Assembly (NCBI GenBank): GCA_963590665.1
Contig: CAVAPR010000004.1
Span: 10,492 to 74,491 of the forward strand
DNA: 64,000 nt
Source of the DNA: Candidatus Methanomethylophilaceae archaeon
GTDB lineage: Bacteria > Cyanobacteriota > Vampirovibrionia > Gastranaerophilales > Gastranaerophilaceae
Reading direction: 5' to 3'
In this document: positions 3,985 to 55,540 of the stretch, one piece after another
Numbering within the stretch: position 1 is the first letter of the stretch
Layout: each line of letters begins with the position of its first letter
Notes under the pieces: generated by a model
Databases searched by the model: none
Seen by the model: the letters and a program-made list of their open reading frames with translations, nothing else
What the model was told of the DNA's origin: nothing
Position numbers and translations under genes: made by a program

Positions 3985-4071
3985 TTTTACAATTTCCACA
4001 ATTTGGACTATTGAACTTTTAACTCATGTGTAGTTTAATTGTTCTGTAGTCGGGCAATTAGGAATAGTAAA

Positions 4072-5025
4072 ATGTTAGAGATTTCAAAAACCCAAGATGA
4101 TGGATCACTAAAAATCTTGAACTTGAATGAAGCCGTTTCAGGTTCTTGGTTCAATTTGATAAATCCGACAAGAGAAGAAATTCAACAAGTGTCTTTAGTT
4201 TTAGGACTTGATGAGAGTTTTTTAAACAACTCATTAGACGCTGACGAGTTATCACGTATGGATTTTGAAGACGGAAATCTCTTAATCATTACTAACGTGC
4301 CTGTTATGGATGAGGAAGGTAATTTTGACACTTTGCCATTAGGTTTAATTTTTACCCCAGAAAGTGTTATTACCGTTTGTTCTCACGAAAACAAGATTAT
4401 TAATTCATTCAATACAGATACAGCAAAGTTTTTTGACACTCGTCATAAAGCGAATTTTATGCTTAGCATTTTGTTTAGAGCTGCAAAGTTCTATTTGAGA
4501 TACCTAAATATTATCAACAAACAAACTGAAAGTATTGAAGATTCTCTAAGAAAAACAACAAATAACAAAGCCCTATTCCAATTGATGGAAATTCAGAAAT
4601 CTTTGGTATATTTTACAACTGCATTGAAAGATAACCAACTTGTACTTCAAAAACTTTTGAGAATGGTGCATACCGCAAACTTACAGAGAATTTTGAAGTT
4701 TACAGAAGATGATATTGATATGCTTGAAGACGTTATCATTGAAAACAAACAGGCATCTGAGATGGTTGAAATGCACAGAACAATTCTAGAAAGTATGATG
4801 GACTGTATGGCTTCAATCATCAACAACAATCTTAACTTGGTAATGAAATTCTTAGCAGCAATTACAATCATCATGTCTATTCCGACAATGATAGGTAGTT
4901 TCTGGGGAATGAATGTACCAATGCCGTTTGGACAAAATCATTTTGGATTTTTGATTGTTATTACAATTTCAATTGTTGCAACATTTATTGCCGCAGTATT
5001 CTTCAACCGTAAAGGTATGATGTAA
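4072..5025 (+). CDS. corA: magnesium/cobalt transporter CorA
   Basis: GMN signature (SFWGMNVPMPF) between two C-terminal TM helices. Start set at ATG 4072 after AGGAA (the ORF track starts at an upstream TTG, 4039). Confidence 0.9.
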   Translation: MLEISKTQDDGSLKILNLNEAVSGSWFNLINPTREEIQQVSLVLGLDESFLNNSLDADELSRMDFEDGNLLIITNVPVMDEEGNFDTLPLGLIFTPESVITVCSHENKIINSFNTDTAKFFDTRHKANFMLSILFRAAKFYLRYLNIINKQTESIEDSLRKTTNNKALFQLMEIQKSLVYFTTALKDNQLVLQKLLRMVHTANLQRILKFTEDDIDMLEDVIIENKQASEMVEMHRTILESMMDCMASIINNNLNLVMKFLAAITIIMSIPTMIGSFWGMNVPMPFGQNHFGFLIVITISIVATFIAAVFFNRKGMM

Positions 5026-5032
5026 TTCAAAA

Positions 5033-5140
5033 GTGTATAAGTTGATAAGTCTATAAGTCTATAAGTCTATAAGTTGGTTTCAAGGAAATAGGGGAATAAG
5101 TTCGTTACAAAAGGCTTTAAGACACTGAGTTCTTTATGTA
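5033..5140 (+). repeat. left terminal inverted repeat of the 5033-7385 unit
   Basis: GTGTATAAGTTGATAAGT (5033-5050) plus TTCGTTACAAAAGGCTTTAAGACACTGAGTTCTTTATGTA (about 5101-5140). Both recur inverted at 7329-7385. Confidence 0.8.
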
Positions 5141-5426
5141 TTTAATGTTATTCTGAAGGATAAACTGTTGAATAGGTAAAATAACATTGCAAATTTGCTT
5201 GAAGAATCTCAAACCAAGCGCACCAGCTTGAGATACTTCGCTTCGCTCAGTATGACGTAACCCGTGTAGTCATTCCGAAATGCGGATTTTGGCAAGAGCG
5301 AAGCTCGTCATGGGGAGGGTTGCGTTGAGCCAGCCGACCCGCCAATAATCCAAGACGGTTTCGGAATCTCTATCCAAATGCACTAGTTAGAGATGCTGAA
5401 ATAAATTCAGCATGACATATTGGAAT

Positions 5427-5536
5427 AGGGGTTCGGGGGCAAAGCTCCTGATGACTCGAACCATTCAATCATTCGTGTTTTTCTTTTTCGGTTCTACTTT
5501 TTCTTTTTTCATCGAAATAAAAAAGAAAAAGTGAAC
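5427..5536 (+). repeat. F module copy 1 (110-nt interspersed element)
   Basis: AGGGGTTCGGGGGCAAAGC.CCTGATGACTCGA.CCATT..ATCATTCGTGTTTTTCTTTTTCGGTTCTACTTTTTCTTTTTTCATCGAAATAAAAAAGAAAAAGTGAAC. Near-identical to 6787-6896, 24826-24935 and 52880-52991. Confidence 0.9.
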
Positions 5537-5700
5537 ATTATAATAATCAACCCCTCTCCCTAGCCCTTAACCTCTCACAAAACAATTCACTGGATTGTTT
5601 TGCTCGGCAGAGTCCTTGGAGAGGGAATGATATTTCTACATTTTACAAGTTGCTTTGTTTATCTGTCAGCTTAGTAAAGCCGACATTTTATTTTCAATAC

Positions 5701-6414
5701 TTACTTCTTTCTTTTCCAAACTCTATCATCAATTTTCCAATTATTACTTTTTACGTATGCCAAACACCAATACCCATCACCACTCAAGCAGTTATTTTCA
5801 ATTTCTTCTTTCGATTTGTCATAACCCGCAGGAAGTAATGCTTCTCTATTTGGGTCATAAACCATAATATAAATATCTTTTCCTATAATATTTGGCTTTT
5901 TGTCCCCATTAGCATCAAAATAAAATTCTAGTGTAGTTTGAGTTGTTTTGACTCCAAAGATACTCCAAGCCTTACTTGCACTATAACCATCAAGACTATA
6001 ATATGCACCTTTTGCGGTTTTAAATGTAAATTCATATCCCATACCATACTTACTTTGCCAATAAGGAGTACCACCATTTAAAGTTTTCACAATCCCGCTA
6101 TTGTGCCAACATCCAGCTTGTTGAAAACAAACTTGTTCAACCTTCATATATGGGGCAATATAAATATCATACCAATCTTTCATTCCTTGAGTTGTCTGAA
6201 TTATGGGAATAATTTCTACATCATCATTTTGAGCCATTCTCATTGTTTGAGCAATATTAGTGTAATTTTCTTTTAATTGGGATTCAATTTGCGCTTTCTG
6301 AACTTTTGTTATCAATGTTGGAATTGTCATAGCTGCAACAACTCCAATAATCCCAAGTGTAATAAGAACCTCTGCGAGAGTAAACCCTAAATTACGTGAA
6401 TTGTAATCAAACAT
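5701..6414 (-). CDS. prepilin-type N-terminal cleavage/methylation domain protein (type IV pilin-like)
   Basis: N-terminus MFDYNSRNLG|FTLAEVLITLGIIGVVAAMTIPTL fits the class III signal peptide (G-F-T-L-x-E plus hydrophobic helix). Shares the paralog motif FDANGDKKPNIIGKDIYIMVY. Confidence 0.85.
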   Translation of the reverse strand: MFDYNSRNLGFTLAEVLITLGIIGVVAAMTIPTLITKVQKAQIESQLKENYTNIAQTMRMAQNDDVEIIPIIQTTQGMKDWYDIYIAPYMKVEQVCFQQAGCWHNSGIVKTLNGGTPYWQSKYGMGYEFTFKTAKGAYYSLDGYSASKAWSIFGVKTTQTTLEFYFDANGDKKPNIIGKDIYIMVYDPNREALLPAGYDKSKEEIENNCLSGDGYWCLAYVKSNNWKIDDRVWKRKK

Positions 6415-6428
6415 ATTTGCCCCATTTC

Positions 6429-6447
6429 TACTGGATATTATCCAGTA
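6429..6447. promoter_or_regulatory. 19-bp perfect palindrome, candidate XRE operator
   Basis: TACTGGATA-T-TATCCAGTA lies between the divergent pilin-like (ATG 6414) and XRE (ATG 6481) genes. An extra half-site TTCCAGTA sits at 6463-6470. Confidence 0.55.
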
Positions 6448-6480
6448 AGATTATGTTATCATTTCCAGTAAAATTGTCAA

Positions 6481-6696
6481 ATGAATGAAGCAGAATTTTA
6501 CCAAAAATTAGGACGACAAATAAAAACCTTGAGAGAAAATGCACATTTAACCCAAGAAAAACTTGCCGAAAAATCTGGCATAAGTCTTGATTATTTAGGA
6601 AAAATTGAAGTTAACATAAATAAACCAGGATTAAAAACACTTTTAAAAATTGCAAACGCACTAAATTTACCCATTAAAAAACTTTTTGATTTTTAA
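6481..6696 (+). CDS. XRE-family helix-turn-helix transcriptional regulator
   Basis: 71 aa. LRENAHLTQEKLAEKSGISLDYLGKIE is a classic Cro/C1-type HTH. Confidence 0.85.
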   Translation: MNEAEFYQKLGRQIKTLRENAHLTQEKLAEKSGISLDYLGKIEVNINKPGLKTLLKIANALNLPIKKLFDF

Positions 6697-6786
6697 TATT
6701 TTTTATTGACAGGCATGACCATTCTAGTATGGTCTTTGCGAACGTGTAGAGATACTTCGCTTCGCTCAGTATGACAAAATTTGATA

Positions 6787-6896
6787 AGGGGTTCGGGGGC
6801 AAAGCCCCTGATGACTCGAGCCATTTAGTCATTCGTGTTTTTCTTTTTCGGTTCTACTTTTTCTTTTTTCGTCGAAATAAAAAAGAAAAAGTGAAC
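6787..6896 (+). repeat. F module copy 2
   Basis: Near-identical to 5427-5536. Confidence 0.9.
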
Positions 6897-7328
6897 AGTT
6901 ATTTTTTTGTCGGATTAGTAAATCCGATCTACATTACTAATCTGACATTAAAAAATAAGCTGGATTGCTTCGCATTCGCTCGCAATGACTGGATTTGAGA
7001 AGAATTTTTCATATTCATCATACTGAGCGGAGCGAAGTATCTCAAAGTTAACAAATATGTCACCCTGAATTTAGTTCAGGGTCTCTAACTGGTGCGTTCT
7101 GATAGAGATGCTGAAACAAGTTCAGCATGATGTATTTATATGGCTCTCTCCAAGGGAGAGAGTGAAATTGTCTTTGAGCTTTAGCGAAAAAGTACAATTT
7201 CGAGAGAGGGTTTTTCTTTTTTCTAATCAACCCCTCTCCTAACCTCAGCCATACGGCACGCAGTTTCACACAACTCAACTTCGTTTCGTTGGTTCAGCTA
7301 GTGTCCCTAGGAGAGGACATAATTTTAT

Positions 7329-7385
7329 TACATAAAGAACTCAGTGCCTTAGAGCCTTTTGTAACAAACTTATCAACTTATACAC
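7329..7385 (-). repeat. right terminal inverted repeat of the 5033-7385 unit
   Basis: The reverse complement reads GTGTATAAGTTGATAAGTTTGTTACAAAAGGCTCTAAGGCACTGAGTTCTTTATGTA. Its first 18 nt are identical to 5033-5050. Confidence 0.8.
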
Positions 7386-7397
7386 TTATTGACTTTA

Positions 7398-8237
7398 TTA
7401 AGGCAATGACATTTTGATACGTTCAATATCATTAAAATCAGAAGGTTTTGATTTCTTTTCACTATTACCCAACATTACAACTGCATCAACTTTCGCAGTT
7501 ATCCTTCTTGAATTTGCAGGGAAAATTGTTATATCTTGGTACTCGTTACTTCTAATTAGATTTTCTACCCTCTGTTTATCTATAGTGCTCAAATACGGAG
7601 AACGTACCGTTATATCCCTTATCGCACCATCAGAAGTTACGATAAATGAATAATAAAACCAAGTTCCAACACCATAATCATCTAGGGATGTTATAGACAT
7701 ACTCTCGTCTAAAATTTTATTGATAAATTCACTCTTCCAAGTGTTCCAGTCAATATTTTTGATTACATAGCTACCAGAAGTTCTTTGATTATTGGTTCTT
7801 GTTGAAGCATTGTTAAGTTGGGTTCTTGCGTTTTCCAAACGTTGTTTACGATTTTTGAAATCATCAAAGTTTTTGTAATAATTGCTTTGACCATTACCAG
7901 AAGTATTTTGATTACTATAACTTGTATCTTGGTTATCAAATGGTTCAAAATCAATATCCGTTCTCTCAGATTGTACCCTTGAACCATTTACCTTCATGCC
8001 TGTATCTTGAAGATTAACTCCTGTATTATTAGCTGAAAGATTTTTATTAGAGAATTTTGAATTAGTTGAATTTACATTTGCGCCCTTGTTTTCAATATTT
8101 GCATTCTCGTTATTCAACGACAAACTCTGATTTGTAAATGAAACCTTTTTGCGTTGAGAAACATCCATTGACATCGCAATAATAGTCAACAAAACAAACA
8201 AAACTATTCCAACTATTACAAAATTCTTTTTATTCAT
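7398..8237 (-). CDS. membrane-anchored N/S/Q-rich protein with possible TonB_C-like C-terminal domain
   Basis: N-terminal TM helix (FVIVGIVLFVLLTIIAMSM), a long low-complexity Asn-rich linker, then a ~90-aa C-terminal globular region (YYSFIVTSDGAIRDITVRSPYLSTIDKQRVENLI...FPAN). Domain call is tentative. Confidence 0.45.
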   Translation of the reverse strand: MNKKNFVIVGIVLFVLLTIIAMSMDVSQRKKVSFTNQSLSLNNENANIENKGANVNSTNSKFSNKNLSANNTGVNLQDTGMKVNGSRVQSERTDIDFEPFDNQDTSYSNQNTSGNGQSNYYKNFDDFKNRKQRLENARTQLNNASTRTNNQRTSGSYVIKNIDWNTWKSEFINKILDESMSITSLDDYGVGTWFYYSFIVTSDGAIRDITVRSPYLSTIDKQRVENLIRSNEYQDITIFPANSRRITAKVDAVVMLGNSEKKSKPSDFNDIERIKMSLP

Positions 8238-8245
8238 AATTTGTA

Positions 8246-9853
8246 CTAATCTAACATTGCTAACAATTCATTATAATTACTGATTTTGCACATTGTAGAA
8301 CTCAAAAGGTGAGTTTCTGCAATCAACAAAGCTGTAGGAACAAGTGCTGTAACAAAACTCAAGAACATACCTTGAATATCACCACCAATTTCAGTAATGA
8401 AATATGATACGTTCATTGTAAATTCAATCAAAATAATGAAACAAGCAATGAACATTACAGTATTTTTTTCTTTGCCTAAGCTGTGCATAGAATCTAGACC
8501 GTAAACAGTAACACCATGGCTATTATAATCATGGAAACCATCAAATTTAATAATTTCAGATCCTTTGATTTGTTTTGAAATTGTGAATGCTCTTACGAAA
8601 GAGAAAAATGCGAAAATAATCAAAAATGTTGCAAGTACTAAGAATATCGGGCTAAATCTTAAGCCAGAAATTCTAACCCAGCTTGCAGCTTCTGGGAAAC
8701 AACTTGCCAAAGTGTTAGAAACACCATAAGCTAGGAATGGAGCTGTTAACAAACCAATAAATACTTCAACAATCATTTTTAATTGATTATTCAAAAGGCT
8801 TCCTCTTACAGTAGCAATTCTATTTTGACTTAATTGGTTAACAAAAGTGTTAATCATTGAGCGATAACGTTTCATAACATTTTCAAAATCTTCTCTATAT
8901 TCACAATTTGTCAATTGTTGATTGTAATTTTTCAACTGGAATTTGAAATAACCACTCGCAACACAAACTGTAGCTAAAGCTCCAGCAAACAATAATGAAA
9001 TAAAGAATGATGCCCCGAAAAATCCAGGGATTTCTTTATAATAAAATAAGTTGATTATATAAATAATGAACATAAATATTGCAGAAACAGCAGTAATAAA
9101 TTTTTGTGCAATATCTGTATCACCATATTTTTTCGAACTGTTGAAATCTAACAATGAATAAACACCGTGCTTCATAATCAAAGAAACAGCAAGAACGATT
9201 GCAGAAATTGCAACCAAAAATCCTGCGTTAGTAGTCAAATTCAAAACAGAACTAGAGTTATCTATCTTCAAACCTAACAAAAAGTTAGTTACGCCAAATG
9301 AACACACAACAGACAAGATAAAAATTGATGCGTTCAAAAGTAGATTTGTAATATTCGCAGACCAAATAGCCCCTTTTAATTCTGTTATTTTATAACCAAT
9401 TTCTTTAATAATTGCAATTCTATTTTTTTCAACATCGTTATTAAAAATATCATTCGCATTTGACGTTGTAGTTTTTATCATTGTAGAAGCTCCTCCAGCT
9501 TTATTTTGTTCAATAGTTTCGGATTGTTGACTTTTCTTTTCCTCAGAATGATGAATTTGTTCTGTATCAACTTCAACAGTAATTTTCCCATTCAAACCCT
9601 TCACTTCTAAAAAGAAATGAGCTGGAGTCAAAACTTTAGAAAAATTTCTGTTATTGACTAAAACATCACTTGAACCAGAAGAATTTATCAACACATAGTT
9701 TTTAAATTTTTCATTATAAATAAACTTAATCTCAACACCTTCAGCAAGATTATTTATTACAAAATCGGAAGACTCATCTCTCCCGATTGTAATATTATGC
9801 TTATCTTCAAAAACTTTGGATTCATCCAAATATTTTATAATAGCTCTCATCAT
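8246..9853 (-). CDS. FHA-like N-terminal domain fused to a multi-pass membrane domain
   Basis: N-terminus ITIGRDESSDFVINNL...YVLINSSGSSDVLVNNRNF resembles an FHA fold, though the S-x-x-H signature is not evident. At least 8 hydrophobic helices follow. 8-nt and 15-nt gaps to its neighbours suggest an operon. Confidence 0.5.
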   Translation of the reverse strand: MMRAIIKYLDESKVFEDKHNITIGRDESSDFVINNLAEGVEIKFIYNEKFKNYVLINSSGSSDVLVNNRNFSKVLTPAHFFLEVKGLNGKITVEVDTEQIHHSEEKKSQQSETIEQNKAGGASTMIKTTTSNANDIFNNDVEKNRIAIIKEIGYKITELKGAIWSANITNLLLNASIFILSVVCSFGVTNFLLGLKIDNSSSVLNLTTNAGFLVAISAIVLAVSLIMKHGVYSLLDFNSSKKYGDTDIAQKFITAVSAIFMFIIYIINLFYYKEIPGFFGASFFISLLFAGALATVCVASGYFKFQLKNYNQQLTNCEYREDFENVMKRYRSMINTFVNQLSQNRIATVRGSLLNNQLKMIVEVFIGLLTAPFLAYGVSNTLASCFPEAASWVRISGLRFSPIFLVLATFLIIFAFFSFVRAFTISKQIKGSEIIKFDGFHDYNSHGVTVYGLDSMHSLGKEKNTVMFIACFIILIEFTMNVSYFITEIGGDIQGMFLSFVTALVPTALLIAETHLLSSTMCKISNYNELLAMLD

Positions 9854-13026: not shown

Positions 13027-15594
<2,568 letters not shown>

Positions 15595-15615
15595 TATTTT
15601 ATAAATATATTAGAT

Positions 15616-15649
15616 AAAGTGCGGAATTTGTAAACAAATTCCGCACTTT
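15616..15649. terminator. bidirectional terminator between gyrB and the convergent gene
   Basis: 15-bp perfect stem AAAGTGCGGAATTTG/CAAATTCCGCACTTT with loop TAAA, flanked by A/T runs. Confidence 0.8.
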
Positions 15650-15651
15650 GT

Positions 15652-16218
15652 TTATAAAATTTCACCCTCAACAAAATCAAACCTATTTTCTTTGATAGCT
15701 TGAATTGCATCTTTGGCATGAATAGTTTTGATGTCATTTGCAACATCATACCCCATGACTTCTGCCAAATGCCTACGACCTTCAACAAATCTATCTATCA
15801 TAAAATCACAAAAACTACTTATCCCTTCAAATTGCGCCCTAAAATATTCACTCAATTTTGCGACCTGCTTTTGTTCTAAAGCATTTGTGTACTCATAAAT
15901 ATCTTTATACTTTTCAGAAGATTTTTCTTCATTTTCAAATTTTTTACGTCGATAAGCCCGCACAATATCTGCATCATCATTTGTGGCATGCAAACTTTCA
16001 GCATAATCTTGGTTGGGAGAAAATTTAGGGATTAAAACTTCTTCTTCCCATCCCCAAAACTTGTCGGGATTTTTCAAATTTACAAACCCGTATGAATCAT
16101 CAATATGATTAGCATGTATAAGTTTGCTAAATTTTTCAATTGATTTTATATCACCTTTTACTATATATCGACCGTTAAAATTTATTGAATTATTATTATT
16201 TATTTGCATTATTTTCAC
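15652..16218 (-). CDS. hypothetical protein
   Basis: 188-aa ORF with a terminator downstream. No recognisable family. Confidence 0.5.
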   Translation of the reverse strand: MKIMQINNNNSINFNGRYIVKGDIKSIEKFSKLIHANHIDDSYGFVNLKNPDKFWGWEEEVLIPKFSPNQDYAESLHATNDDADIVRAYRRKKFENEEKSSEKYKDIYEYTNALEQKQVAKLSEYFRAQFEGISSFCDFMIDRFVEGRRHLAEVMGYDVANDIKTIHAKDAIQAIKENRFDFVEGEIL

Positions 16219-16271
16219 TTTAAAATTTCTTCCATCTATACAAAATCCCTAAATAAAATTTTTTGCACAAA

Positions 16272-16297
16272 AAAGAGGAGAATAAATCTCCTCTTTC
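16272..16297 (-). terminator. terminator after hpf
   Basis: Stem AAAGAGGAG/CTCCTCTTT, followed on the minus strand by TTTTTTGTG. Confidence 0.7.
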
Positions 16298-16323
16298 TTA
16301 TTAAATATCTTTTGAAGTAGAAA

Positions 16324-16704
16324 TTAGTCTTCCATAGCCTTTACTTCAACTGTTTCTTCTTCATCTTTTTCGTTTTGAACATCAGTACGGATTGAAGCTT
16401 TATCAGAACCGATATTTTTATCTTTGAATTTTGTAATTTGTCTAGCTAATTTGTCAGCTAACAAATCGATACTAGCATACATTGATTCAGCAGCTTCTTC
16501 ACATCTGATAGTACCAGTTGACATTTTGCATGTAACTTCTGCAATATGCTTTCCTTCAGCAGCAGGATTTTTAATTACAGACAAAACTACGTCAATACCT
16601 TGAATTTGGTCATAACGAGTTGCAACTTTACCAATTTTTTCTTTAACGTAAGCTTTAATAGCTTCTGTAATTTCAATGTTTCTTCCGTTTACATGAATGT
16701 GCAT
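16324..16704 (-). CDS. hpf: ribosome hibernation promoting factor (short HPF/RaiA family)
   Basis: MHIHVNGRNIEITEAIKAYVKEKIGKVATRY... is the typical sigma-54 modulation/S30AE family N-terminus. Confidence 0.85.
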   Translation of the reverse strand: MHIHVNGRNIEITEAIKAYVKEKIGKVATRYDQIQGIDVVLSVIKNPAAEGKHIAEVTCKMSTGTIRCEEAAESMYASIDLLADKLARQITKFKDKNIGSDKASIRTDVQNEKDEEETVEVKAMED

Positions 16705-17359: not shown

Positions 17360-17587
17360 CTAAATGCTAATATGTTCACTAACCAATTCTTGTAATTCTA
17401 CTTCTAAAATTTGAGCCAAATTTCTAAGATATATTATTGTCGGATTTGTTAATCCACGCTCAACTTTACTATAATAACTTTTATCAATATTTAATTTACT
17501 TGCAATATCATCCTGCGAAAGTTTCTTTATATTTCGTAGAATTTTAAGTTTTATTCCTAATCGTTGTAAATATTCTTCATTAGTCAT
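17360..17587 (-). CDS. XRE-family helix-turn-helix transcriptional regulator
   Basis: 75 aa. LRNIKKLSQDDIASKLNIDKSYYSKVERG is an HTH motif. Homologous to the regulator at 6481..6696. Confidence 0.85.
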   Translation of the reverse strand: MTNEEYLQRLGIKLKILRNIKKLSQDDIASKLNIDKSYYSKVERGLTNPTIIYLRNLAQILEVELQELVSEHISI

Positions 17588-17620
17588 CTTATAATTTTAA
17601 AAAGTTGACTAATCTAATAC

Positions 17621-17669
17621 AATAGTTTATATTAACAATATGATGGTTTATAAACTATTATATTGTTAA
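17621..17669. promoter_or_regulatory. interleaved dyad symmetries in the XRE/pilin divergent promoter region
   Basis: AATAGTTTAT (17621-30) pairs with ATAAACTATT (17650-59). TTAACAATAT (17632-41) pairs with ATATTGTTAA (17660-69). Confidence 0.45.
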
Positions 17670-17725
17670 TAAAGTAATATTTTTTATGAAAGTAAACTAA
17701 TATAAAAAATCTTGAAAGGTTTAAA

Positions 17726-18418
17726 ATGAAAAATATATTTCCTTATCCTTCTAAGAACAGGTGCGCATTTACACTTGCAGAAGTTCTTATCACCATTGGA
17801 GTAATAGGTATAGTTGCAGCAATGACAATACCGACACTAATGCACAAATACTATGAAAAACAAACAGTTAGCCGATTAAAAGAAACATATTCAATACTTG
17901 CACAAGCCATCAAACTTTGTGGAGAAGAAAATGGGTATCCAGAAGATTGGGGCTTAACAGGAAGAAATGCAGAAAGTACAGCGATTGTTGCAGAACAAAT
18001 TATTCCTTATTTAAAAATCAACATTGACTGTGGAATGGGAATGGAGAAAAGTGACAAATGTTTTCCAAATGCAATACAAAGCTTAAATGGGGTAAGGAAA
18101 GCCAATTTAATGAACTCAAGTCAATACTATGTATCATTGTTAAATGGTTCATCTATTGCAATAGAAAGTGCCGAAGTTGAGGCTGATATGTATTTATATT
18201 TTTTAATTGACACAAATGGCACAGCCAAACCAAATACGTGGGGCAAAGATATTTTTGAATTCACATATAGAGGTAGTTTAGGACTTGTCCCATCAGGACA
18301 CCCCGATACACCATCCAATTCCTATAAAACAACATGCCATAGCTCTGAAGATTATGGTTGGGGATGTGCATATTACGTAATGAACTATAATAATATGGAA
18401 TACTTACGCAGAAAATAG
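17726..18418 (+). CDS. prepilin-type N-terminal cleavage/methylation domain protein (type IV pilin-like)
   Basis: KNRCA|FTLAEVLITIGVIGIVAAMTIPTL, with Ala instead of Gly at position -1. Paralog motif IDTNGTAKPNTWGKDIFEFTY. Confidence 0.85.
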   Translation: MKNIFPYPSKNRCAFTLAEVLITIGVIGIVAAMTIPTLMHKYYEKQTVSRLKETYSILAQAIKLCGEENGYPEDWGLTGRNAESTAIVAEQIIPYLKINIDCGMGMEKSDKCFPNAIQSLNGVRKANLMNSSQYYVSLLNGSSIAIESAEVEADMYLYFLIDTNGTAKPNTWGKDIFEFTYRGSLGLVPSGHPDTPSNSYKTTCHSSEDYGWGCAYYVMNYNNMEYLRRK

Positions 18419-23329: not shown

Positions 23330-23989
23330 ATGAGAAAAGGTCTTACTATTAGTGAATTGCTTGTCGCAATGGCGATTATTGGAGTTATTGCAGTACTTGT
23401 TATTCCAGGATTTTTGAAAGATTATCATAAAAAGTTATATACAACACAGCTTAAAAAAACGTACGGAATGATATACAGCGCAATTGAACAAGCTTGTGGC
23501 GATTATAATGTAACTGCTTTTAGCCAAACACCTTATTATACAGCAAATGCAAGCACTGAAAAACAAGGCGAATTTTTGAATAAATATTTTAAAGTCGTTA
23601 AGCCAGCAAATGATTCAATAACAGGAAAATTCAATGCAAAATATAGATCCCTTACTGACACTGATACAGAAAAAGATATTTCCATTGAAAGTTCTGCAGC
23701 AAAAGCTACATTAAAAAGTGGGGAATCTATTGGATTATATTGTTTTTCAACTGATGTTGCACCAAAACATAGATGTCATGTAACACTCGATATTAACGCA
23801 ACCGATGGACCAAATATTGGTGGACGTGACATGTTTAGATTTACTATTGATACAGATACAAATGAACTGTATGGTGCAACAGGTTGGACACAATGTCAAC
23901 CAGATAATGATAAAAATCCAACTGGTGATCAAGGCGGGCATGGTTGCTTGGCACGTATTATGAAAGACAATTGGGTAATGGAATACTAA
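23330..23989 (+). CDS. prepilin-type N-terminal cleavage/methylation domain protein (type IV pilin-like)
   Basis: MRKG|LTISELLVAMAIIGVIAVLVIPG, with Leu at +1. Paralog motif LDINATDGPNIGGRDMFRFTI. C-terminal DNWVMEY. Confidence 0.85.
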   Translation: MRKGLTISELLVAMAIIGVIAVLVIPGFLKDYHKKLYTTQLKKTYGMIYSAIEQACGDYNVTAFSQTPYYTANASTEKQGEFLNKYFKVVKPANDSITGKFNAKYRSLTDTDTEKDISIESSAAKATLKSGESIGLYCFSTDVAPKHRCHVTLDINATDGPNIGGRDMFRFTIDTDTNELYGATGWTQCQPDNDKNPTGDQGGHGCLARIMKDNWVMEY

Positions 23990-24005
23990 TTTGAAAGGAT
24001 ATATA

Positions 24006-24707
24006 ATGAAAAAAGGTTTTACACTATCAGAAGTTTTAATTACATTAGGAATTGTTGGAGTTGTTGCAGTTTTGACAGTCCCTGGAGTTATGAAAAACTA
24101 TAAAAATAGATTATATACAGCGCAACTTCAAAAAGCTTATGCCCAAATTGCCGACAGCGTTCAAGCAATGATGAATGACCAACATGTAGATAATTTATAT
24201 GAATCAACAATTGCCAACCCAAATTCTTGTACTAATGCCAATAATGGGATTTGCGAAAAAGGTGTTGGGGTATTTTTGAACAACTATTTCAAGGTTTCAA
24301 AAAGAAATTGTAAATCTGACGATAAAACAAAAAGATGTATTGCTGGTACAGGGCAAGGAAGTTACACAACAATCAATTCCAATGCAGCTAGTGCAATTGA
24401 TACGGAATATTGTATTCAAAATACAAATGGCGCAGCAATTTGCGGACAATGGGATGCAACAAATAAAATGGTACACTTGCTAGTTGATGTAAATGGAACA
24501 GCTTCACCAAACATGGTTGGAAGAGATTTGTTTGCAATTGATATTAAATCAGATGGTTCATTAAGTGATTATGGTTCAAATAGCCCAGATCCAACGGTTA
24601 CAGCCAATAAAACCACATGTGATGATTCTTCTTCTGGGTCACTTAACTCTTTAGCATCAGGCTGTTTAAATACAATCATCAACGCTGGTTGGAAAATGGA
24701 ATATTAA
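24006..24707 (+). CDS. prepilin-type N-terminal cleavage/methylation domain protein (type IV pilin-like)
   Basis: MKKG|FTLSEVLITLGIVGVVAVLTVPG. Start set at ATG 24006 after AAGGA. VDVNGTASPNMVGRDLFAIDI. C-terminal AGWKMEY. Confidence 0.88.
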   Translation: MKKGFTLSEVLITLGIVGVVAVLTVPGVMKNYKNRLYTAQLQKAYAQIADSVQAMMNDQHVDNLYESTIANPNSCTNANNGICEKGVGVFLNNYFKVSKRNCKSDDKTKRCIAGTGQGSYTTINSNAASAIDTEYCIQNTNGAAICGQWDATNKMVHLLVDVNGTASPNMVGRDLFAIDIKSDGSLSDYGSNSPDPTVTANKTTCDDSSSGSLNSLASGCLNTIINAGWKMEY

Positions 24708-24719
24708 TACAATTTCATT

Positions 24720-25368
24720 TGGTAGCTGCAGGTAAGTCCCATCTTGCTATGTTCTTACTAGGAATTTCAACTAATGCGTATGGATAGAAATTCCGAAACG
24801 GTCTTGAATTATTGGCGTACTCAATAGGGGTTCGGGGGCAAAGCCCCTGATAACTCGAGCCATTTTATCATTCGTGTTTTTCTTTTTCGATTCTACTTTT
24901 TCTTTTTTCATCGAAATAAAAAAGAAAAAGTGAATATTAGAACAATCAACCCCTCTCCATGGAATATAGAACTACGTCACCTTGAACTTGTTTCAGGGTC
25001 TCTAGCTGGTGCGTTCGGGTAGAGATTCCGAAACTAGTTCGGAATGACAGTACGAGTTTGTGTCATACTGAGCGGAGCGAAGTATCTCTATCTAAACTTG
25101 TTAGGTTTACCCCTCACCTCAATCCTCTCCCCAAGGAGAGGAAGATTTTTTATAGATTCTTTGCATTCGCTCAGAATGACTGAATTTGCTATAGCTAAGC
25201 CCCTTATTCTGTTAAAAACATAAAGAACTCAGTGCCTTAGTGCCTTAAAGCCTTTTGTAACGAACTTATAGACTTATCCACTTATAGACTTTTATTCAAT
25301 CAACCCCTCACCCTATCCCTCTCCCTCGGAGAGGGAAAATGTTATGTAACCAACTTATAGACTTTTGA
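24720..25368. repeat. mosaic palindromic repeat block 3
   Basis: Contains F module copy 3, GTCACCTTGAACTTGTTTCAGGGTCTCT and GTCATACTGAGCGGAGCGAAGTATCTC modules, the ACATAAAGAACTCAGTGCCTTAG...GTAACGAACTTATAGACTTATCCACTTATAGAC right-edge module, and CCCTCTCC hairpins. Confidence 0.9.
24826..24935 (+). repeat. F module copy 3
   Basis: Near-identical to 5427-5536. Confidence 0.9.
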
Positions 25369-28591: not shown

Positions 28592-30070
28592 CTATATTTC
28601 ACCAAGGCTATCAATTTTGAATGTACAGCCAATTTCTTCTTGTGCAAGTACTGTAATATCATTGATATACATAGATAACAATGTAAAGAATATTTGTCTG
28701 TAATCCATTGGAACAATCAATTTTGGAGAATAAATATTTAATTTTTTAGCTTTCTTTTGGATTTTTAATGCCAATTTTTCAGCAACTTCTCCATCAATTT
28801 TAATCAATGAATCTTCAGTTTCATCACAGCCTAGAACAATATCAGAATATGTTTTTTCTGAAAGTTCAAATGCGCTAATAGTTTCACCATCTTCGTTTGT
28901 ATATTTTCTACAAATTTGTCTTGATAAAGATAACCTAATTTTGTTCAGTATGTCTGCCTTGCTGCCTTCTTCTGCAAAATCATTAATTTTTTCAAAAATG
29001 TAGGTGATATTTTTAATTGAAACTTTTTCTTTTATCAAACTTGTCATAATATATTTCAAATCTGAATATGTTAGCAAATCTGGAATAATATTTTCAATCA
29101 AGAAATCATTTTCCTTTTCAACAACTTCTAAATATTTATCAATATCATCATAATCAAGCAAATCATCAACATACTTTATAGCAACATACTCTAAAGCTTT
29201 TGAAATATATTCAGATGAAGTTATACCTTTTTGCCAAAAATCTTTGGTTTTGTCTTTTTCTACCCAAGTAACCTTTCTTCCTGTAATTTCATCAACAGCA
29301 GAAATTGAGTTCTTAATCTTATGTTCTGTATGAAGTTCATCAGCATAAAACATCAAATATCCTGGGCAAACACCAGCTCTAAAAACTTCCATTCCACGAA
29401 TGCGAATACTAAATTCACAAGAGTTTAGATTTTCATCATCTTTAAATACAACTTTTGGAATAATATAACCAACTTCTTCTGTCAATTTCAATCTAGATTT
29501 AACAGTTTCAGCAATAAGTTCTTCGCCAGAATTATCTCTTTCAGAATCAACAAATCCCAAAAGTTCTTCACTTAAATAAATAGTAAGTTTTTCTTCATGA
29601 AGTTTTGAATACATCAAATCTGGTGAAGTTGCTTTGTTCAAATGAGCTTTCAAATCATCTAATTCTTTCAAACCTGCAGAAATTTTATCGTTCAATTTGT
29701 TTCTTGAAACAGTTGCAGGAGCTTCGTTATCCAATTCAGCTTTGATTTTATTTATCTTATTTTTCTGAGAACGAATTTGAGATTGAATTTCAAGACATTT
29801 TTCATATTCGGTCAATTTTGGAGAAAGCATTTTTTCCATTTGACTTTTAAAATCAGAAATATTGATTATGTCACTATCAGAATTGTTTTCAGGTTTAGAT
29901 GGTCGCATAAAAATACAATTCATCTGAGGATTTTCTTCATCTCCAGATTCGTGCATACTATATAATTCCCAACCATTCATTGACATTTCGTTGAGTAAAT
30001 TTTGTAAATCCTGAGCATTTTCTGTTGAACATGTTTTAATCACATATTCCATTCTATTTTTACCGAACAT
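28592..30070 (-). CDS. soluble protein with FlhA C-terminal (FHIPEP cytoplasmic) domain, N-terminal DUF4177-like domain and coiled coil
   Basis: Residues ~160-490 are colinear with FlhA_C. VGYIIPKVVFKDDENLNSCEFSIRIRGMEVFRAGVCPGYL matches the FlhA pattern G(F/I)V.P.VRIRDN..L.P.EY.IKIKG.EVA.GE. LIKEKVSIKNITYIFEKINDFAEEG matches Bacillus-type LLKEKVSIRNLVTIFETLADYG (recalled from memory). No TM segments. Confidence 0.75.
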   Translation of the reverse strand: MFGKNRMEYVIKTCSTENAQDLQNLLNEMSMNGWELYSMHESGDEENPQMNCIFMRPSKPENNSDSDIINISDFKSQMEKMLSPKLTEYEKCLEIQSQIRSQKNKINKIKAELDNEAPATVSRNKLNDKISAGLKELDDLKAHLNKATSPDLMYSKLHEEKLTIYLSEELLGFVDSERDNSGEELIAETVKSRLKLTEEVGYIIPKVVFKDDENLNSCEFSIRIRGMEVFRAGVCPGYLMFYADELHTEHKIKNSISAVDEITGRKVTWVEKDKTKDFWQKGITSSEYISKALEYVAIKYVDDLLDYDDIDKYLEVVEKENDFLIENIIPDLLTYSDLKYIMTSLIKEKVSIKNITYIFEKINDFAEEGSKADILNKIRLSLSRQICRKYTNEDGETISAFELSEKTYSDIVLGCDETEDSLIKIDGEVAEKLALKIQKKAKKLNIYSPKLIVPMDYRQIFFTLLSMYINDITVLAQEEIGCTFKIDSLGEI

Positions 30071-35062: not shown

Positions 35063-35440
35063 GTCATCCTGAGCAGAGCGAAGGATCTCTAACATAGGCG
35101 TTCTGATAGAGATTCCGAACTAAATTCGGAATGACTGTTGCGCACAACTCTCTCCAAGGGAGACACTAGCCGAACAGGTGAAGCGAAGCTGAACCTTGTG
35201 AGACTGCGTACCTTTAGGTTGAGTGAAATTGTCTTTAAGCTGTTGCGAAAAGATACAATTTCGAGAGAGGGTTTTTCTTTTATAATCAACCCCTCTCCCT
35301 ACCCTCTCCCTCGGAGAGGGTGACTTATCCACTTATGGACTTATCAACTCTTTATGTAATGAACTTATTCCCTTATTTCCTTCTTCCTTTTCCCTTGTAA
35401 CGAACTTATCCACTTATCAACTTATAGACCTATAGACTTT
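35063..35440. repeat. mosaic palindromic repeat block 4
   Basis: Contains a GTCATCCTGAGCAGAGCGAAGGATCTCT module, an AGAGATTCCGAACTAAATTCGGAATGAC hairpin, a CTCTCCAAGGGAGA hairpin split by a 57-nt insert (35164-35220), CCCTCTCC hairpins, and an ACTTAT 8-mer array at the right edge. Confidence 0.9.
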
Positions 35441-35444
35441 TTAA

Positions 35445-39645: not shown

Positions 39646-39963
39646 TTATTCGGCTTTTCCCATAACGTGAATATGCAAGTGCATAACTTCTTGTCCAGCT
39701 TCTTTGCCAGTATTTATTTGAACTTTATATGCTTTTAGCCCAGCTTTTTTAGCAGAATCTTTGACAGCTTGCATAAGTTCAGCCATCAAATTTTTATCAT
39801 CTAATTCAATTAAAGATTGAATATGTTTTTTAGGACACACAAGCAAATGAACTGGAGCTTTAGGATTTATGTCTTTAAAAACAACAGTATTTTCTGTTTC
39901 ATAAACAAACTCTGTTCCAAAATCCCCGTTAATAATCTTACAAAAAATACAATCTTCACTCAT
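39646..39963 (-). CDS. histidine triad (HIT) family protein
   Basis: CIFCKI N-terminus and HLHIHVMG triad. Confidence 0.9.
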   Translation of the reverse strand: MSEDCIFCKIINGDFGTEFVYETENTVVFKDINPKAPVHLLVCPKKHIQSLIELDDKNLMAELMQAVKDSAKKAGLKAYKVQINTGKEAGQEVMHLHIHVMGKAE

Positions 39964-40363
39964 CTTGATTTCTCCTAACTAAAATTAAATAACCAATACG
40001 AAAAACCCGTATATTGATAAATATAACATAAATAAAGTCTATAAGTCTATAAGTTGATAAGTGAATAAGTCTATAAGTTCGTTACGTAAATTTTCCCTCC
40101 CCAAGGGTGGAGGGATTAAGGGAGAGGGGTTGATGTATAAGGAAAAAGGGACAAGGGAAATAGGGAAATAAGTTCGTTACATAACATTTTCCCTCTCCAA
40201 GAGACACTAGCGGAACCAATAGTTTTACCCTCTCCTTGAGGAGAGGGCTAGGGTGAGGTGGTAAACAGAACAAGCCGAACCTATGAAACTGAGTGCCGTA
40301 TAACTAAGGGCAGGGAGAGGGGTTAACTCAATGCATAGGATATAAAATACTACCCAGAATGAA

Positions 40364-40541
40364 GATACAGCTGTTTCCCCTCCACTTTGAGGGAGGGGAA
40401 GAATTTCAATACGAACTATGTGAGTATTAGAAATTCAGGGGAGGGGGATATTTAATTTCAAACCCCTCCTCGAAATCAAAGATTTCGGTCCTCCCACAAT
40501 CTGGGGAGGACATTATTCTTGGAGTATCAATTGTATGGTCT
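40364..40541 (-). repeat. K element copy 1 (148-nt multi-hairpin core at 40364-40511)
   Basis: Its reverse complement differs from copies 2 and 3 at one position of the 148-nt core (CTCAAAGTGG versus CTCAGAGTGG). Confidence 0.9.
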
Positions 40542-40830
40542 TAATCTGTTTTCTTCTTTGAGAGAGAAGATTTATCTAAACGCATAGGATAGAGATTCTT
40601 CGGGTAAATTTGTAATATTGTTTTTTACATTCAATTATTTACCCCTCAGAATGACTGAACTCTATTTTCCCTCCCCAAGGGTGGAGGGATTAAGGGAGAG
40701 GGTTCTTTTTTTCTAATAAACCCCTCTCCTAACCTCTCCCTCGGAGAGGAATTATGTTCAATATCTTAACAAGCCCGTCATACTGAGCGGAGCGAAGTAT
40801 CTCAAGCTGAACGAGTTCAGATTAACCCCT
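40364..40830 (-). repeat. left arm of the long inverted repeat flanking the pilin-like gene
   Basis: Its reverse complement aligns with 42097-42546 from AGGGGTTAATCTGAAC... to ...GGGGAAACAGCTGTATC. The alignment is interrupted only by module-sized indels. Confidence 0.85.
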
Positions 40831-41794
40831 ATCTATAGTTAATATAATCAGTCCAGTAGTTGTTATGACGAGTTACAGTCTTACCTTTTGCAGAAGTACC
40901 TGTATCTTTTTTATTTCCTAATCTATCAGCCCAGTCCATAGCGGCAATATTTTCTACAGGTTCATTAAAATAGCAATAATCAACCGCAGACCCAGAACCT
41001 TTTCTGTATCCAGTTTGACTTGGCATTTTATTCCCCCAACTATCACTAGAGATTTTATTTATATCACAAAGAACAAATTGACCAGAATAATTGCCAACAT
41101 GCGGGTCATCTGGGTTTTCATTATTTATATATATAGCTATTTCTTTAGCTGTCATTGGTTTAAAAATAAATGTATCTATATTCATTCTATTTGGCGCAGC
41201 TGTTCCATTTATATCAACACAAACGAACTGATTTTCACCATTGAAAGTCCATATACGACCTTTTGAATCAGTCCAAATTCCACCGTTATCACAAACAATT
41301 CCTGGAGATCCTGTTTTATCTTCAGTTTCAGTATTATGAAACCATTTTGGTCCTTGCGGAGCACCAGCATCTTTATATATTTGTTTTAACCTCCCACTTA
41401 TACCATTACTTGAATTAGCATTCTTATCAAAAGGTGCACCTCCTGCTAAATATGACATAAATTCACTTGCCCAACGTCTTGTATCACCATAGACATTTTT
41501 ACCTGCAGCAGTTTGAGTACCACATCTAAAGTTTGGGGCTTTTGACATATCAGTATATACACATTTATAAGCGAACTCACCAACATCGCCATTTTCATAG
41601 TTCATTCTAGCGCCAATTTCTTTGACTTCGCTATATGTTGAGCGGAACTGTTGTTCCAAAACTTTTCCACGGTAATTGTATGCCAAAGTTGGGATTGTCA
41701 ACGCTGCAACAGACCCCAAAAGCCCAATCGCTATCAACAATTCCGCCAATGTAAAACCAGATTTTTTATGCCAAAAACTCACGATTATAACCAA
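40829..41794 (-). CDS. prepilin-type N-terminal cleavage/methylation domain protein (type IV pilin-like, long form)
   Basis: HKKSG|FTLAELLIAIGLLGSVAALTIPTL. Paralog motif VDINGTAAPNRMNIDTFIFKP. 321 aa. Confidence 0.85.
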   Translation of the reverse strand: MVIIVSFWHKKSGFTLAELLIAIGLLGSVAALTIPTLAYNYRGKVLEQQFRSTYSEVKEIGARMNYENGDVGEFAYKCVYTDMSKAPNFRCGTQTAAGKNVYGDTRRWASEFMSYLAGGAPFDKNANSSNGISGRLKQIYKDAGAPQGPKWFHNTETEDKTGSPGIVCDNGGIWTDSKGRIWTFNGENQFVCVDINGTAAPNRMNIDTFIFKPMTAKEIAIYINNENPDDPHVGNYSGQFVLCDINKISSDSWGNKMPSQTGYRKGSGSAVDYCYFNEPVENIAAMDWADRLGNKKDTGTSAKGKTVTRHNNYWTDYINYR

Positions 41795-42096
41795 TCCTCA
41801 TAAACTTCCAATAACATGTTTATTATAACGTATTTTTTGCCTAAAGTCTAGAGGAGGGTGAGAAATGTTGTGAGGAACTTGTTTTAGAATTTCTGGCTAA
41901 ATGCACCAGTTAGAGATGCTGAAACAGCTAATGGCTTCGTCAACGCATACAGACTCACACGTTTCGCCTACAGCTCAACGGTTCGCTTTGTAAAGTTCAA
42001 CATGACAAGTGTGTTCGGTTTACCTCCTCACCCTAACCCTCTCCTCAAGGAGAGGGAAATTCTGTGTTCCTTCTCCCTTGGGAGAAGGTTAGGATG

Positions 42097-42546
42097 AGGG
42101 GTTAATCTGAACTTGTTCAGCTTGAGATACTTCGCTCCGCTCAGTATGACAAACTTGTTAAGATATTGAACATAATTCCTCTCCGAGGGACACTAGCTGA
42201 ACCAACGAAACGAAGTTGAGTTGTGTGAAACTGCGTGCCGTATGGCTGAGGTTAGGAGAAGGGTTGATTAGAAAAAAGAAAAATCCTCTCCCTTAGTCCC
42301 TCCACCCTTGGGGAGGGAAAATAGTGCTATTATTCTGAGGGACAAGTAATTGAATGTAAAAAACAGGCTAAGACTATACAATTGATACTCCAAGAATTGT
42401 CCTCCCCAGATTGTGGGAGGACCGAAATCTTTGATTTCGAGGAGGGGTTTGAAATTAAATATCCCCCTCCCCTGAATTTCTAATACTCACATAGTTCGTA
42501 TTGAAATTCTTCCCCTCCCTCAGAGTGGAGGGGAAACAGCTGTATC
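42097..42546 (+). repeat. right arm of the long inverted repeat flanking the pilin-like gene
   Basis: See the left arm. Contains a 59-nt insert (42191-42249) that is absent from the left arm. Confidence 0.85.
42371..42546 (+). repeat. K element copy 2 (core 42399-42546)
   Basis: The 148-nt core is identical to copy 3. Confidence 0.9.
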
Positions 42547-42591
42547 CTCATTCTGAATAGTATGAAAATGTTATGTAACCAACTTGTAGAC

Positions 42592-43164
42592 TTATCTTAT
42601 CCTTTTACCCAAAGACAAGCCTGCAGGAAGTGGTAAAACTACATTTTCGAAATCAGGGTCTGCATCAATTGCATCTAAAAATGTCTGTACTTTTGCTGCG
42701 TGAGAAATTACATTATCACAAGCAATATAACCACCTACGTTTAAATGTGGTTTTATAAATTCGAAAAACTTAATATATTGCGATTTATTCGCATCAATAA
42801 ATGCGAAATCTATCCTAAAATCCTCTGGCAAATATTCCAAAATCGTTGCGGCATCGCCTTTTCTGGTTTCAATAATATCCCCAACTCCGCATTTTTCAAA
42901 ATTTTCTTTTGCGACATCTAATCTCTTATCGTAAAACTCAATTGTAGTCAACTTACCACCAGTTTTTTTAAGAGCTTTGCCTAACCAAATTCCAGAATAA
43001 CCGTTAGAAGTTCCAACTTCTACAACACTTTTTGCTTTGGAATCAACAATCAAATTGTACAAAAATTCCGCAGTTGGTCGTGAAATATTCCAAAATTGTT
43101 TTTGGGTTTTTTCTAATTCTTTCAAGACTTCTTGAGTCGTGTTATCAAATGTTTCTATAATCAT
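42592..43164 (-). CDS. class I SAM-dependent O-methyltransferase (family 3, caffeoyl-CoA OMT-like)
   Basis: VVEVGTSNGYSGIWLG SAM motif, and IDANKSQY. Confidence 0.8.
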   Translation of the reverse strand: MIIETFDNTTQEVLKELEKTQKQFWNISRPTAEFLYNLIVDSKAKSVVEVGTSNGYSGIWLGKALKKTGGKLTTIEFYDKRLDVAKENFEKCGVGDIIETRKGDAATILEYLPEDFRIDFAFIDANKSQYIKFFEFIKPHLNVGGYIACDNVISHAAKVQTFLDAIDADPDFENVVLPLPAGLSLGKRIR

Positions 43165-51021: not shown

Positions 51022-51089
51022 ATTCCAATCGCCCCGTGAATAAACCATATAAACAATTATACTATTTTTTTTGAATATTTTCAAGTGGG

Positions 51090-55505: not shown

Positions 55506-55534
55506 TTGACATGAATTTTTGCTTAATTTACTAT
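55506..55534 (+). promoter_or_regulatory. candidate sigma-70 promoter of the 55685-58382 operon
   Basis: TTGACA (55506-55511), 17-nt spacer, TACTAT (55529-55534). Confidence 0.55.
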
Positions 55535-55540
55535 CAAAAT

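Follow-up and report, generated by a model that had tools for sequence, protein, structure and literature searches.

The 64-kb stretch of DNA examined here (the window, from a member of Candidatus Gastranaerophilales, gut Melainabacteria) carries, between corA and a conserved gene at 7398-8237, an interval (5027-7399) in which a prepilin-type gene and a divergent XRE-family regulator are enclosed by two repeat-rich islands. The original prediction read this interval as a mobile or recombining cassette resembling a MITE (miniature inverted-repeat transposable element), with inverted repeats delimiting a unit that delivers genes. Comparison of homologous loci points elsewhere: the interval is probably a resident, strain-hypervariable pilin slot in the chromosome that is changed by recombination, not one mobile element. 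The pilin and XRE genes occupy the slot beside corA with zero, one or two islands, and both termini exist without genes (L089/L092). That the inverted repeats delimit a gene-delivering unit is not supported, as the gene pair lies in the same slot without repeats in L095/L097 and the termini are kept without genes in L089/L092; what survives of the cassette is that the segment is variably present among close strains, not that it moves as a single element.

The features of the interval and its anchor genes are given below with their strands; the module labels (OCT, B40, G, C28, X1, D64, E120, F, H and I) were assigned in the present analysis.

4039-5025, plus: corA, the conserved left anchor gene (PF01544, E = 2.4e-49)
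5027-5074, plus: left outer terminus, an octamer array (ATAAGTNN)x5-6 that begins AAAAGT 1 nt past the corA stop codon
5029-5700: left mosaic island (OCT, B40, G, C28, X1, D64, E120, F fragment, H)
5096-5145, plus: module B40 (ATAAGTTCGTTACA...), left arm of a 50-nt inverted repeat
5280-5357, plus: X1, a GC-rich segment of 78 nt inserted within the loop of a TTCCGAA/TTCGGAA hairpin
5424-5541, plus: E120 direct-repeat copy 1, with two hairpins
5701-6414, minus: pilin/pseudopilin gene, prepilin-type (class III signal peptide), 237 aa, motif G/FTLAE
6429-6447: candidate XRE operator, a perfect 7-5-7 palindrome, TACTGGA-TATTA-TCCAGTA (TACTGGATATTATCCAGTA)
6453-6480, minus: sigma-70-like pilin promoter (TTGACA, 16 nt, TG-TAACAT), a consensus match only, upstream of the candidate operator
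6481-6696, plus: XRE-family helix-turn-helix (HTH) regulator, 71 aa, divergent from the pilin gene (HTH_3, PF01381, E = 1.4e-15, 57.5 bits against a cut-off of 23)
6697-7399: right mosaic island (C28, E120, I, C28', D64', D64, F, B40', OCT')
6787-6902, plus: E120 direct-repeat copy 2, 91-95% identical to copy 1
7329-7373, minus: module B40', right arm of the long inverted repeat
7368-7399, minus: right outer terminus, an inverted octamer array reaching right up to the stop codon of the 7398-8237 gene
7398-8237, minus: conserved right anchor gene, 279 aa

Of the two flanking genes, corA was confirmed as such, and the TonB_C-like label given to the right neighbour could not be reproduced, as neither gene of the right-hand operon (7398-8237 and 8246-9853, both on the minus strand) has a Pfam match at E ≤ 0.01. 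The 7398-8237 gene is syntenic with corA in the distant species L011, L013, L017 and L077 (L-numbered contigs are the homologous loci used for comparison). A query with the CorA protein returned 80 loci, many of them labelled as Candidatus Gastranaerophilales or Melainabacteria gut metagenome-assembled genomes (MAGs). Ten contigs from other samples (L089-L098, about 21 kb each) were chosen through the exact CorA protein, counted from the ATG at 4072; CorA is identical and the left flank conserved in all ten. The states of the corA slot are as follows.

Window: corA, island, 237-aa pilin, candidate operator, XRE, island, 7398-8237 gene
L095 and L097 (two independent samples): corA, 8 nt, 241-aa pilin, candidate operator, XRE, 26 nt, 7398-8237 gene; zero repeats
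L094: corA, 241-aa pilin, candidate operator, XRE, map (methionine aminopeptidase); no islands
L098 and L003: corA, 53 nt (one octamer and a terminator hairpin), 237-aa pilin, candidate operator, XRE, map; no islands
L096: corA, left island (different module order, no octamer array), 237-aa pilin, candidate operator, XRE, map
L091: corA, island, inverted pilin, map
L090 and L093: corA, island, 78-nt pilin N-terminal remnant only, map
L089 and L092 (two samples): corA, gene-less 600-nt island with both inverted termini, 7398-8237 gene

Neither a clean empty site, with corA abutting its neighbour, nor a target-site duplication, by which the original prediction expected an insertion to be recognized, was found in the ten sister contigs; every breakpoint falls within the unit or concerns islands alone. 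In the distant species (L011, L013, L017 and L077) corA and the homologue of the 7398-8237 gene are separated by a DMT-type transporter gene, and these loci were rejected as empty sites, being uninformative on excision. The corA slot is variable alike in strains without any arrays (L095 versus L098). To its right, contigs with identical CorA carry one of two alternative chromosomal blocks, either that of the 7398-8237 gene or a map-tmk-pheT block, and a large rearrangement breakpoint therefore coincides with the slot. Decayed genes were also seen: an inverted 78-nt pilin N-terminal fragment at 11459-11536 in L090 and 11451-11528 in L093, and a truncated 3' part of an XRE gene at 16000-16100 in L091. 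These remnants are scars of previous slot occupants.

The gene-less state in L089/L092 locates one such change. Besides the inverted repeats, the pair in the window is bracketed by direct repeats, namely the two E120 copies and two C28 copies (5230-5256 and 6749-6775, 100% identical). The L089 island was aligned to both window copies and compared at diagnostic sites: it agrees with the left copy at 14 of 14 sites upstream of E120, is mixed within E120, and matches the right copy at most informative sites downstream. On this alignment, the switch from left to right is the signature of a crossover between direct E120 copies, not one at the termini. Because the gene pair is syntenic in the more distant L095/L097 lineage, parsimony makes L089 the product of a deletion.

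The module of variable presence consists of the pilin and XRE genes, which were correctly called as the two genes between the repeat blocks (Pfam N_methyl and HTH_3 matches); they are the only credible ones there, the remaining open reading frames (ORFs) falling within repeats. Class III signal peptides have G at -1, F at +1 and E at +5, followed by a hydrophobic helix, and the pilin N-terminus (MFDYNSRNLG/FTLAEVLITLGIIGVVAAMTIP) has all of these features, together with a PF07963 (N_methyl) score of 25.9 bits against a cut-off of 21.2. The pilin family is very large, with more than 7,000 matches that carry N_methyl (PF07963) and/or DUF6613 (PF20318), and homologues are named 'type II secretion system protein' or 'pseudopilin PulG' by their sources. 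No prepilin peptidase, ATPase or platform genes were noticed on reading the ORF list of the window, a reading that included no dedicated search. Six prepilin-type genes are present in the window in all.

In line with the original reading, the pilin-XRE pair is a self-contained module with a conserved palindromic candidate operator. The palindrome at 6429-6447 is accompanied by an extra TCCAGTA half-site, is unique in the window, and accompanies different pilin alleles in the window, L003, L042, L094 and L095. From this predicted operator, the regulator probably represses the pilin gene, and possibly itself. The XRE proteins of the window and L095 share 93% amino-acid identity; the pilins share only 30% and are alike just in their N-terminal ~45 residues, and at the nucleotide level homology extends from XRE across the intergenic region as far as the 5' end of the pilin gene and then ends. 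The L095 pilin is 82% identical to the pilin in the tmk-pheT slot of L090, and pilin bodies have therefore moved between slots. Divergent pilin-XRE pairs are common in the clade, also without islands (window 17360-18418; L083-L088, from another species). A metagenome scan with the pilin returned only 57-66% orthologues from another species, which serve as island-free controls for the pilin-XRE pair, not as strain variants. The second divergent pair of the window (XRE at 17360-17587, minus; prepilin gene at 17726-18418, plus) has a different, palindrome-rich intergenic region and no islands.

The slot between tmk and pheT behaves like the corA slot and is a second slot of the same kind. In all six map-type strains the inward-facing termini are largely preserved in sequence there, with the left octamer array detected in four, and the content of the slot differs as follows.

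L094 and L096: empty, about 690-720 nt, two-ended
L090 and L093: 241-aa pilin (in L090 within a two-ended unit, 15008-16454)
L091: 241-aa pilin and a truncated XRE remnant
L098: 248-aa pilin and XRE

In this slot, a (GATAT)n tract separates the start codon of the pilin gene from a TATAAT-like box (about 15430-15455 in L090, with equivalents in L093 and L091), its copy number ranges from about 4 to 6 depending on the strain, and it may be a phase-variable 5' region.

Self-BLAST of the window revealed eight mosaic islands, all intergenic: 5029-5559, 6747-7399, 24823-25364, 35082-35444, 40031-40833, 41881-42593, 50912-51698 and 52513-53158. The first two of these are the two mosaic blocks of ~650 bp that had been recognized from the outset. 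All draw on the common module set listed above, in an order and orientation that differ between islands, and the two that flank the pilin and XRE genes are themselves non-identical in module content and order. Among the strains, the left island is missing in L095/L097, L094 and L098 and has an altered module order in L096, and the right island is missing in L095/L097, with the 26-nt spacer in its place. A clean case of a module inserted into a module is provided by X1, as the TTCCGAA/TTCGGAA hairpin is unbroken, without X1, in L089 (11150-11165). Modules E120 and F fold into hairpins with z = -4.4 and -4.3, respectively. The islands and modules thus have the properties of a MITE-like or repetitive extragenic palindromic (REP)-like family: they are multi-copy, intergenic, non-coding and hairpin-forming, and they show insertion polymorphism between strains (X1 is present in the window and absent from L089; islands come and go across L095, L098, L096 and the window). 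To this extent the term MITE-like stands, the ends of the interval deriving from a multi-copy, transposase-less repeat family. It does not extend to a single MITE at 5027-7399: terminal inverted repeats are present (20 nt perfect; 45-50 nt at 90-93%), and the small, non-coding interior of such an element is not, as the interval measures 2.37 kb and holds two intact, conserved genes. Nor does it behave as a composite transposon of MITEs and cargo, as its flanks differ, the unit was found nowhere else, and the cargo sits in this very slot in contigs that lack the flanks.

The distribution of islands in the window is uneven. They occur in 6 of the 10 intergenic regions that border pilin modules against 2 of the 48 others (Fisher p = 1.3e-4). 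They are also where assemblies fail: Logan contigs end at island edges, and the Logan assembly SRR13434656, apparently of the same strain as the window, breaks exactly at repeat edges. Look-ups with exact proteins (HIT at 39646-39963, ispF, the methyltransferase at 42592-43164 and the 7398-8237 protein) likewise recovered only short same-sample Logan contigs broken at repeats. An independent Logan contig (L099) matches the junction from the right terminus to the 7398-8237 gene at 100% identity. Rfam gave nothing at the gathering score in the region, and only sub-threshold whalefall-1 and plant-miRNA-like matches were obtained, on CCTCTCC/GGAGAGG hairpins. The whalefall-1 matches (21-28 bits; gathering score 37) fall on CCTCTCC...GGAGAGG hairpin modules, and whalefall-1-like hairpins lie in the window at 7142-7211, 40226-40260, 40374-40446, 42024-42058, 42283-42321 and 42464-42536; the orphan metagenomic whalefall-1 motif may be a related repeat hairpin. 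Literature searches on Melainabacteria repeats or MITEs, on small dispersed repeats and with one module sequence string found nothing specific; as far as these searches show, what is new is the octamer-array terminus, the host lineage and the enrichment at pilin slots.

The inverted repeats that first drew attention to the interval are real. The 18-mer GTGTATAAGTTGATAAGT at 5033-5050 (plus) recurs as an exact reverse complement at 7368-7385 (minus), and the match is perfect even over 20 nt (5031-5050 and 7368-7387); the ~40-nt block at 5101-5140 is found inverted at 7329-7368 with 3 mismatches, within a longer inverted repeat of 45-50 nt (5096-5145 and 7324-7373) that is 90-93% complementary (90% when taken as 50 nt). 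The 18-mer is a piece of a tandem octamer array, (ATAAGTNN)n, ending in ATAAGTTCGTTACA, and this array makes up the outer end of eight islands in the window. With up to 3 mismatches it has 14 matches in the window against 0.13 expected, ATAAGTNNATAAGT has 19 exact matches against 0.01 expected, and the conserved ATAAGTTCGTTACA motif, joined by arrays, has 11. The repeats are thus far above chance, yet the inverted pairing of 18-mers is nothing special. Great abundance of the two repeats had been named at the outset as the finding that would make their inverted arrangement unremarkable, and this largely applies to the 18-mer, not to the 40-mer, which has just 3 sites.

An octamer array is always at the outer edge of its island and begins AAAGT, giving a terminus consensus of AAAGT-(octamers)-ATAAGTTCGTTACA. 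It is often flush with a gene boundary, at 0 nt from the stop codons of the 7398-8237 gene and ispF and 1 nt from that of corA, and it overlaps the stop codon of the methyltransferase gene at 42592. In DNA folding the octamer terminus is unstructured and the internal modules fold strongly. Octamer copy number ranges from 1 to 7 across orthologous termini of the strains compared. For the 5027-7399 unit, a special pairing of its two termini was considered and rejected, as the right one is closer to the terminus at 25297 (local alignment score 49) than to its own partner (41). No target-site duplication was found at 5027-7399, where the flanks (TAATTC/AAAAGT... and ...GACTTTA/TTAAGG) show no direct repeat, and checking four two-ended units by eye revealed nothing more than ambiguous A/T runs. 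Read on the opposite strand, the octamer units GTGGATAA and GTGTATAA give TTATNCAC, which we take to be the DnaA-box core; DnaA-box-like units occur in the window at 5033-5040, 25274-25281, 35325-35332, 35406-35413 and 52521-52528 and as other array units. The commonest unit, GTCTATAA, deviates from that core. A scan of viral contigs for the terminus motif gave 8 chance matches within one phage ORF and zero arrays.

Four units of the window have two inward-facing termini, 5027-7399 being one of them, and two islands have a single recognizable terminus (ending at 25295 and 35443). The other units and islands are listed here.

40031-42597: two-ended unit enclosing a pilin gene (40829-41794, minus)
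51098-51698: gene-less two-ended unit, 601 nt, between the pilin gene at 50314-51084 and adk
52515-53162: gene-less two-ended unit, 648 nt, between adk and pfp
24823-25295: one-terminus island downstream of the pilin pair at 23330-24707, with its octamer terminus toward ffh; this terminus is the nearest relative of the one at 7399
35082-35443: one-terminus island with its octamer terminus flush with the ispF stop codon and no adjoining pilin gene

The favoured explanation combines three layers. The first is a functional two-gene module, a prepilin-type gene with a divergent XRE gene and the candidate palindromic operator. In the second, two separately evolving mosaic islands, built from hairpin-rich MITE/REP-like modules (C28, D64, E120, F and others), fill the spacers on either side, each ending outward in a (ATAAGTNN)n-ATAAGTTCGTTACA array that abuts the neighbouring housekeeping gene. 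As the islands face each other and their arrays point outward, 'terminal inverted repeats' arise automatically. The third layer is homologous recombination, as the comparison of strains shows: a crossover between direct E120 copies deletes the pilin and XRE genes, inverted repeat copies accompany inversion of the pilin gene, and pilin bodies are exchanged between slots with XRE, the operator and the pilin N-terminus retained. Modules also insert into each other and array copy number slips; for the original spread of the modules, a transposase acting in trans or gene conversion are the candidates. In all likelihood the islands serve as substrates for recombination around the hypervariable pilin slots.

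Several points weigh against the resident slot and have to be set beside it. On sequence alone, the event in L089 could be the reverse one, a Campbell-type insertion of a circle carrying one E120 into an L089-like state. The probable repression of the pilin promoter by the regulator, acting at the palindrome TACTGGA-N5-TCCAGTA, is judged from the position and conservation of the candidate operator only. Two-ended units that enclose a pilin gene recur (5027-7399, 40031-42597 and tmk-pheT in L090/L093/L098), which is more order than random insertion would give, and the regular outward polarity of the arrays is likewise more than independent random insertion predicts. Candidate reasons for the polarity and clustering of the islands are relaxed selection near accessory genes, co-transfer with pilin alleles when strains recombine with one another and a real boundary function of the arrays.

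These regularities are what keep alive the notion that 5027-7399 is a single non-autonomous element with terminal inverted repeats (or a composite of two MITEs) that captured the pilin and XRE genes and is moved by a transposase encoded elsewhere. We consider it unlikely, and it retains some probability because the polarity and the clustering at pilin slots are regular. It would account for termini that share a clear consensus and lie flush with gene boundaries, for the gene-less two-ended units of ~600-650 nt (51098-51698 and 52515-53162, with similar ones at tmk-pheT in L094/L096) and for the units around other pilin genes (40031-42597 and L090 15008-16454), and MITE-flanked cargo is a known mode of mobilization (PMC10969869). 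It is hard to reconcile with the presence of the pair in the same slot without termini (L095/L097) and next to corA with at most one island (L094, L098 and L096), with a gene loss in L089/L092 that leaves both termini and maps to internal direct repeats, and with termini that are not mutually closest, the right one being nearest to 25297. Ten sister contigs contain no empty site (distant species have the DMT transporter gene there), and no target-site duplication is visible. Nor was a mobilizing enzyme found. Pfam was applied to 20 ORFs of the window, none of which has a transposase or recombinase domain; the others were called housekeeping, and no such domain was recognized in them, judged by N-terminal sequence only, in agreement with the original statement that the 64 kb contain no transposase or integrase. 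In the ±10 kb flanks of the ten sister loci no transposase or recombinase gene was seen, and no gene resembling a REP-associated tyrosine transposase (RAYT) or TnpA was seen in the window and sister-strain sequence.

At the opposite extreme, abundant repeats might stand inverted by pure coincidence around two unrelated ordinary genes. Seven to eleven arrays in both orientations within 64 kb, and islands away from pilin genes (35082-35443 and 52515-53162), would fit; the enrichment of islands at pilin-module boundaries and their involvement in the observed pilin deletions and rearrangements make this account quite improbable. Less probable still is that the arrays belong to a site-specific system, either as att-like sites of an integron- or shufflon-like pilin slot or as DnaA-box-like binding arrays, with the termini as functional boundaries and not transposon ends. 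The retention of most terminus sequence at tmk-pheT in six strains while content varies is suggestive of this, as are a copy number that varies as in a binding-site array or a variable-number tandem repeat and the resemblance of GTGGATAA/GTGTATAA to what we take to be the complement of the DnaA-box core. It is countered by the lack of a recombinase gene in the window or the sister flanks, by breakpoints that were seen in internal modules and not in arrays, by a corA slot that varies likewise without arrays (L095 versus L098), and by a commonest unit, GTCTATAA, that is off the DnaA-box core. A bolder proposal that we hold to be possible, though doubtful, is that an undescribed Gastranaerophilales family of octamer-array-ended composite units marks and maintains hypervariable pilin slots: its shared modules would provide portable homology for the deletion, inversion and exchange of the pilin gene, with or without XRE, between slots and strains, and its termini would be functional boundaries. 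If true, this would amount to a repeat-scaffolded diversification system for surface pilins.

Set against known systems, the resident slot and its islands appear as a combination of known kinds, and the claim of a new class of cargo-carrying element does not hold. Short palindromic intergenic modules of variable order and orientation that are multi-copy, nested and without a transposase of their own recall the REP clusters and bacterial interspersed mosaic elements (BIMEs) of Escherichia coli and the small repeats of cyanobacteria, whose nested small dispersed repeats and MITEs were reportedly described by Elhai et al. in Genome Res in 2008; unlike these, the present islands reach 600-800 nt, end in an octamer array and are enriched beside pilins. 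Pilin loci at fixed sites are familiar from Pseudomonas aeruginosa, in which pilA groups and accessory genes share a chromosomal site, and from Neisseria, in which pilE and pilS recombine with flanking repeats. The likeness lies in the fixed slot, the conserved pilin N-terminus with an exchanged C-terminal body, and the nearby repeats as recombination substrates; the difference lies in the host (an uncultured melainabacterium), in a partner that is an XRE regulator rather than a glycosylation or accessory gene, and in programmed antigenic variation or silent cassettes, which are not evidenced here. The 71-aa HTH_3 protein, divergent promoter region and perfect palindromic candidate operator resemble an XRE repressor with a divergent target, which in this instance, unlike in usual pairs, would be a prepilin gene. 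Elements derived from IS200/IS605 have subterminal hairpins, lack terminal inverted repeats and target-site duplications, insert in an oriented manner 3' of a target such as TTAC, and depend on a TnpA(Y1) in the genome. The ...GTTAC-A termini, the fixed polarity and the absence of duplications are similar, as a lead only; the present termini are inverted repeats, and no TnpA was seen.

The original prediction knew of no described element family with this architecture. MITE-flanked cargo, however, is reviewed in PMC10969869, with examples including class 1 integrons of Acinetobacter that lie between identical MITEs and mcr-5 mobilized with the IR148 MITE. Those cases share with ours the non-autonomous inverted repeats on both sides of genes and the transposase-free interior, and they differ in having identical, discrete MITEs, target-site duplications and whole units at different sites, as opposed to mosaic, non-identical flanks, no duplication, a unit never found elsewhere and genes in the same slot without flanks (PMC10969869).

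At this locus, surface pilin alleles are replaced from strain to strain in slots of fixed position. The locus also exposes a burst of mosaic repeats, specific to the lineage, that drives deletions and rearrangements there. Such variation is relevant to interactions with phages or the host, to antigenic diversity and to the fragmentation of MAGs at these sites, and the octamer-array termini with their fixed outward polarity present an unexplained regularity for mobile-element biology. The Gastranaerophilales, which are related to cyanobacteria but uncultured and non-photosynthetic, are common in the guts of humans and animals, and their genome variation is little known.

Two further features of the window lie apart from the slots. 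An AdoCbl-II (cobalamin) riboswitch aptamer was detected at 55530-55605 (plus; 40 bits against a gathering score of 36.5), and the ORFs downstream of it (55685-57875) have no Pfam matches. In the 492-aa ORF at 28592-30070 (minus), the match to FHIPEP/FlhA is confined to the C-terminal, cytoplasmic part of that protein (profile positions 314-653 of 657), and the N-terminus of the ORF carries a weak DUF4177 match.

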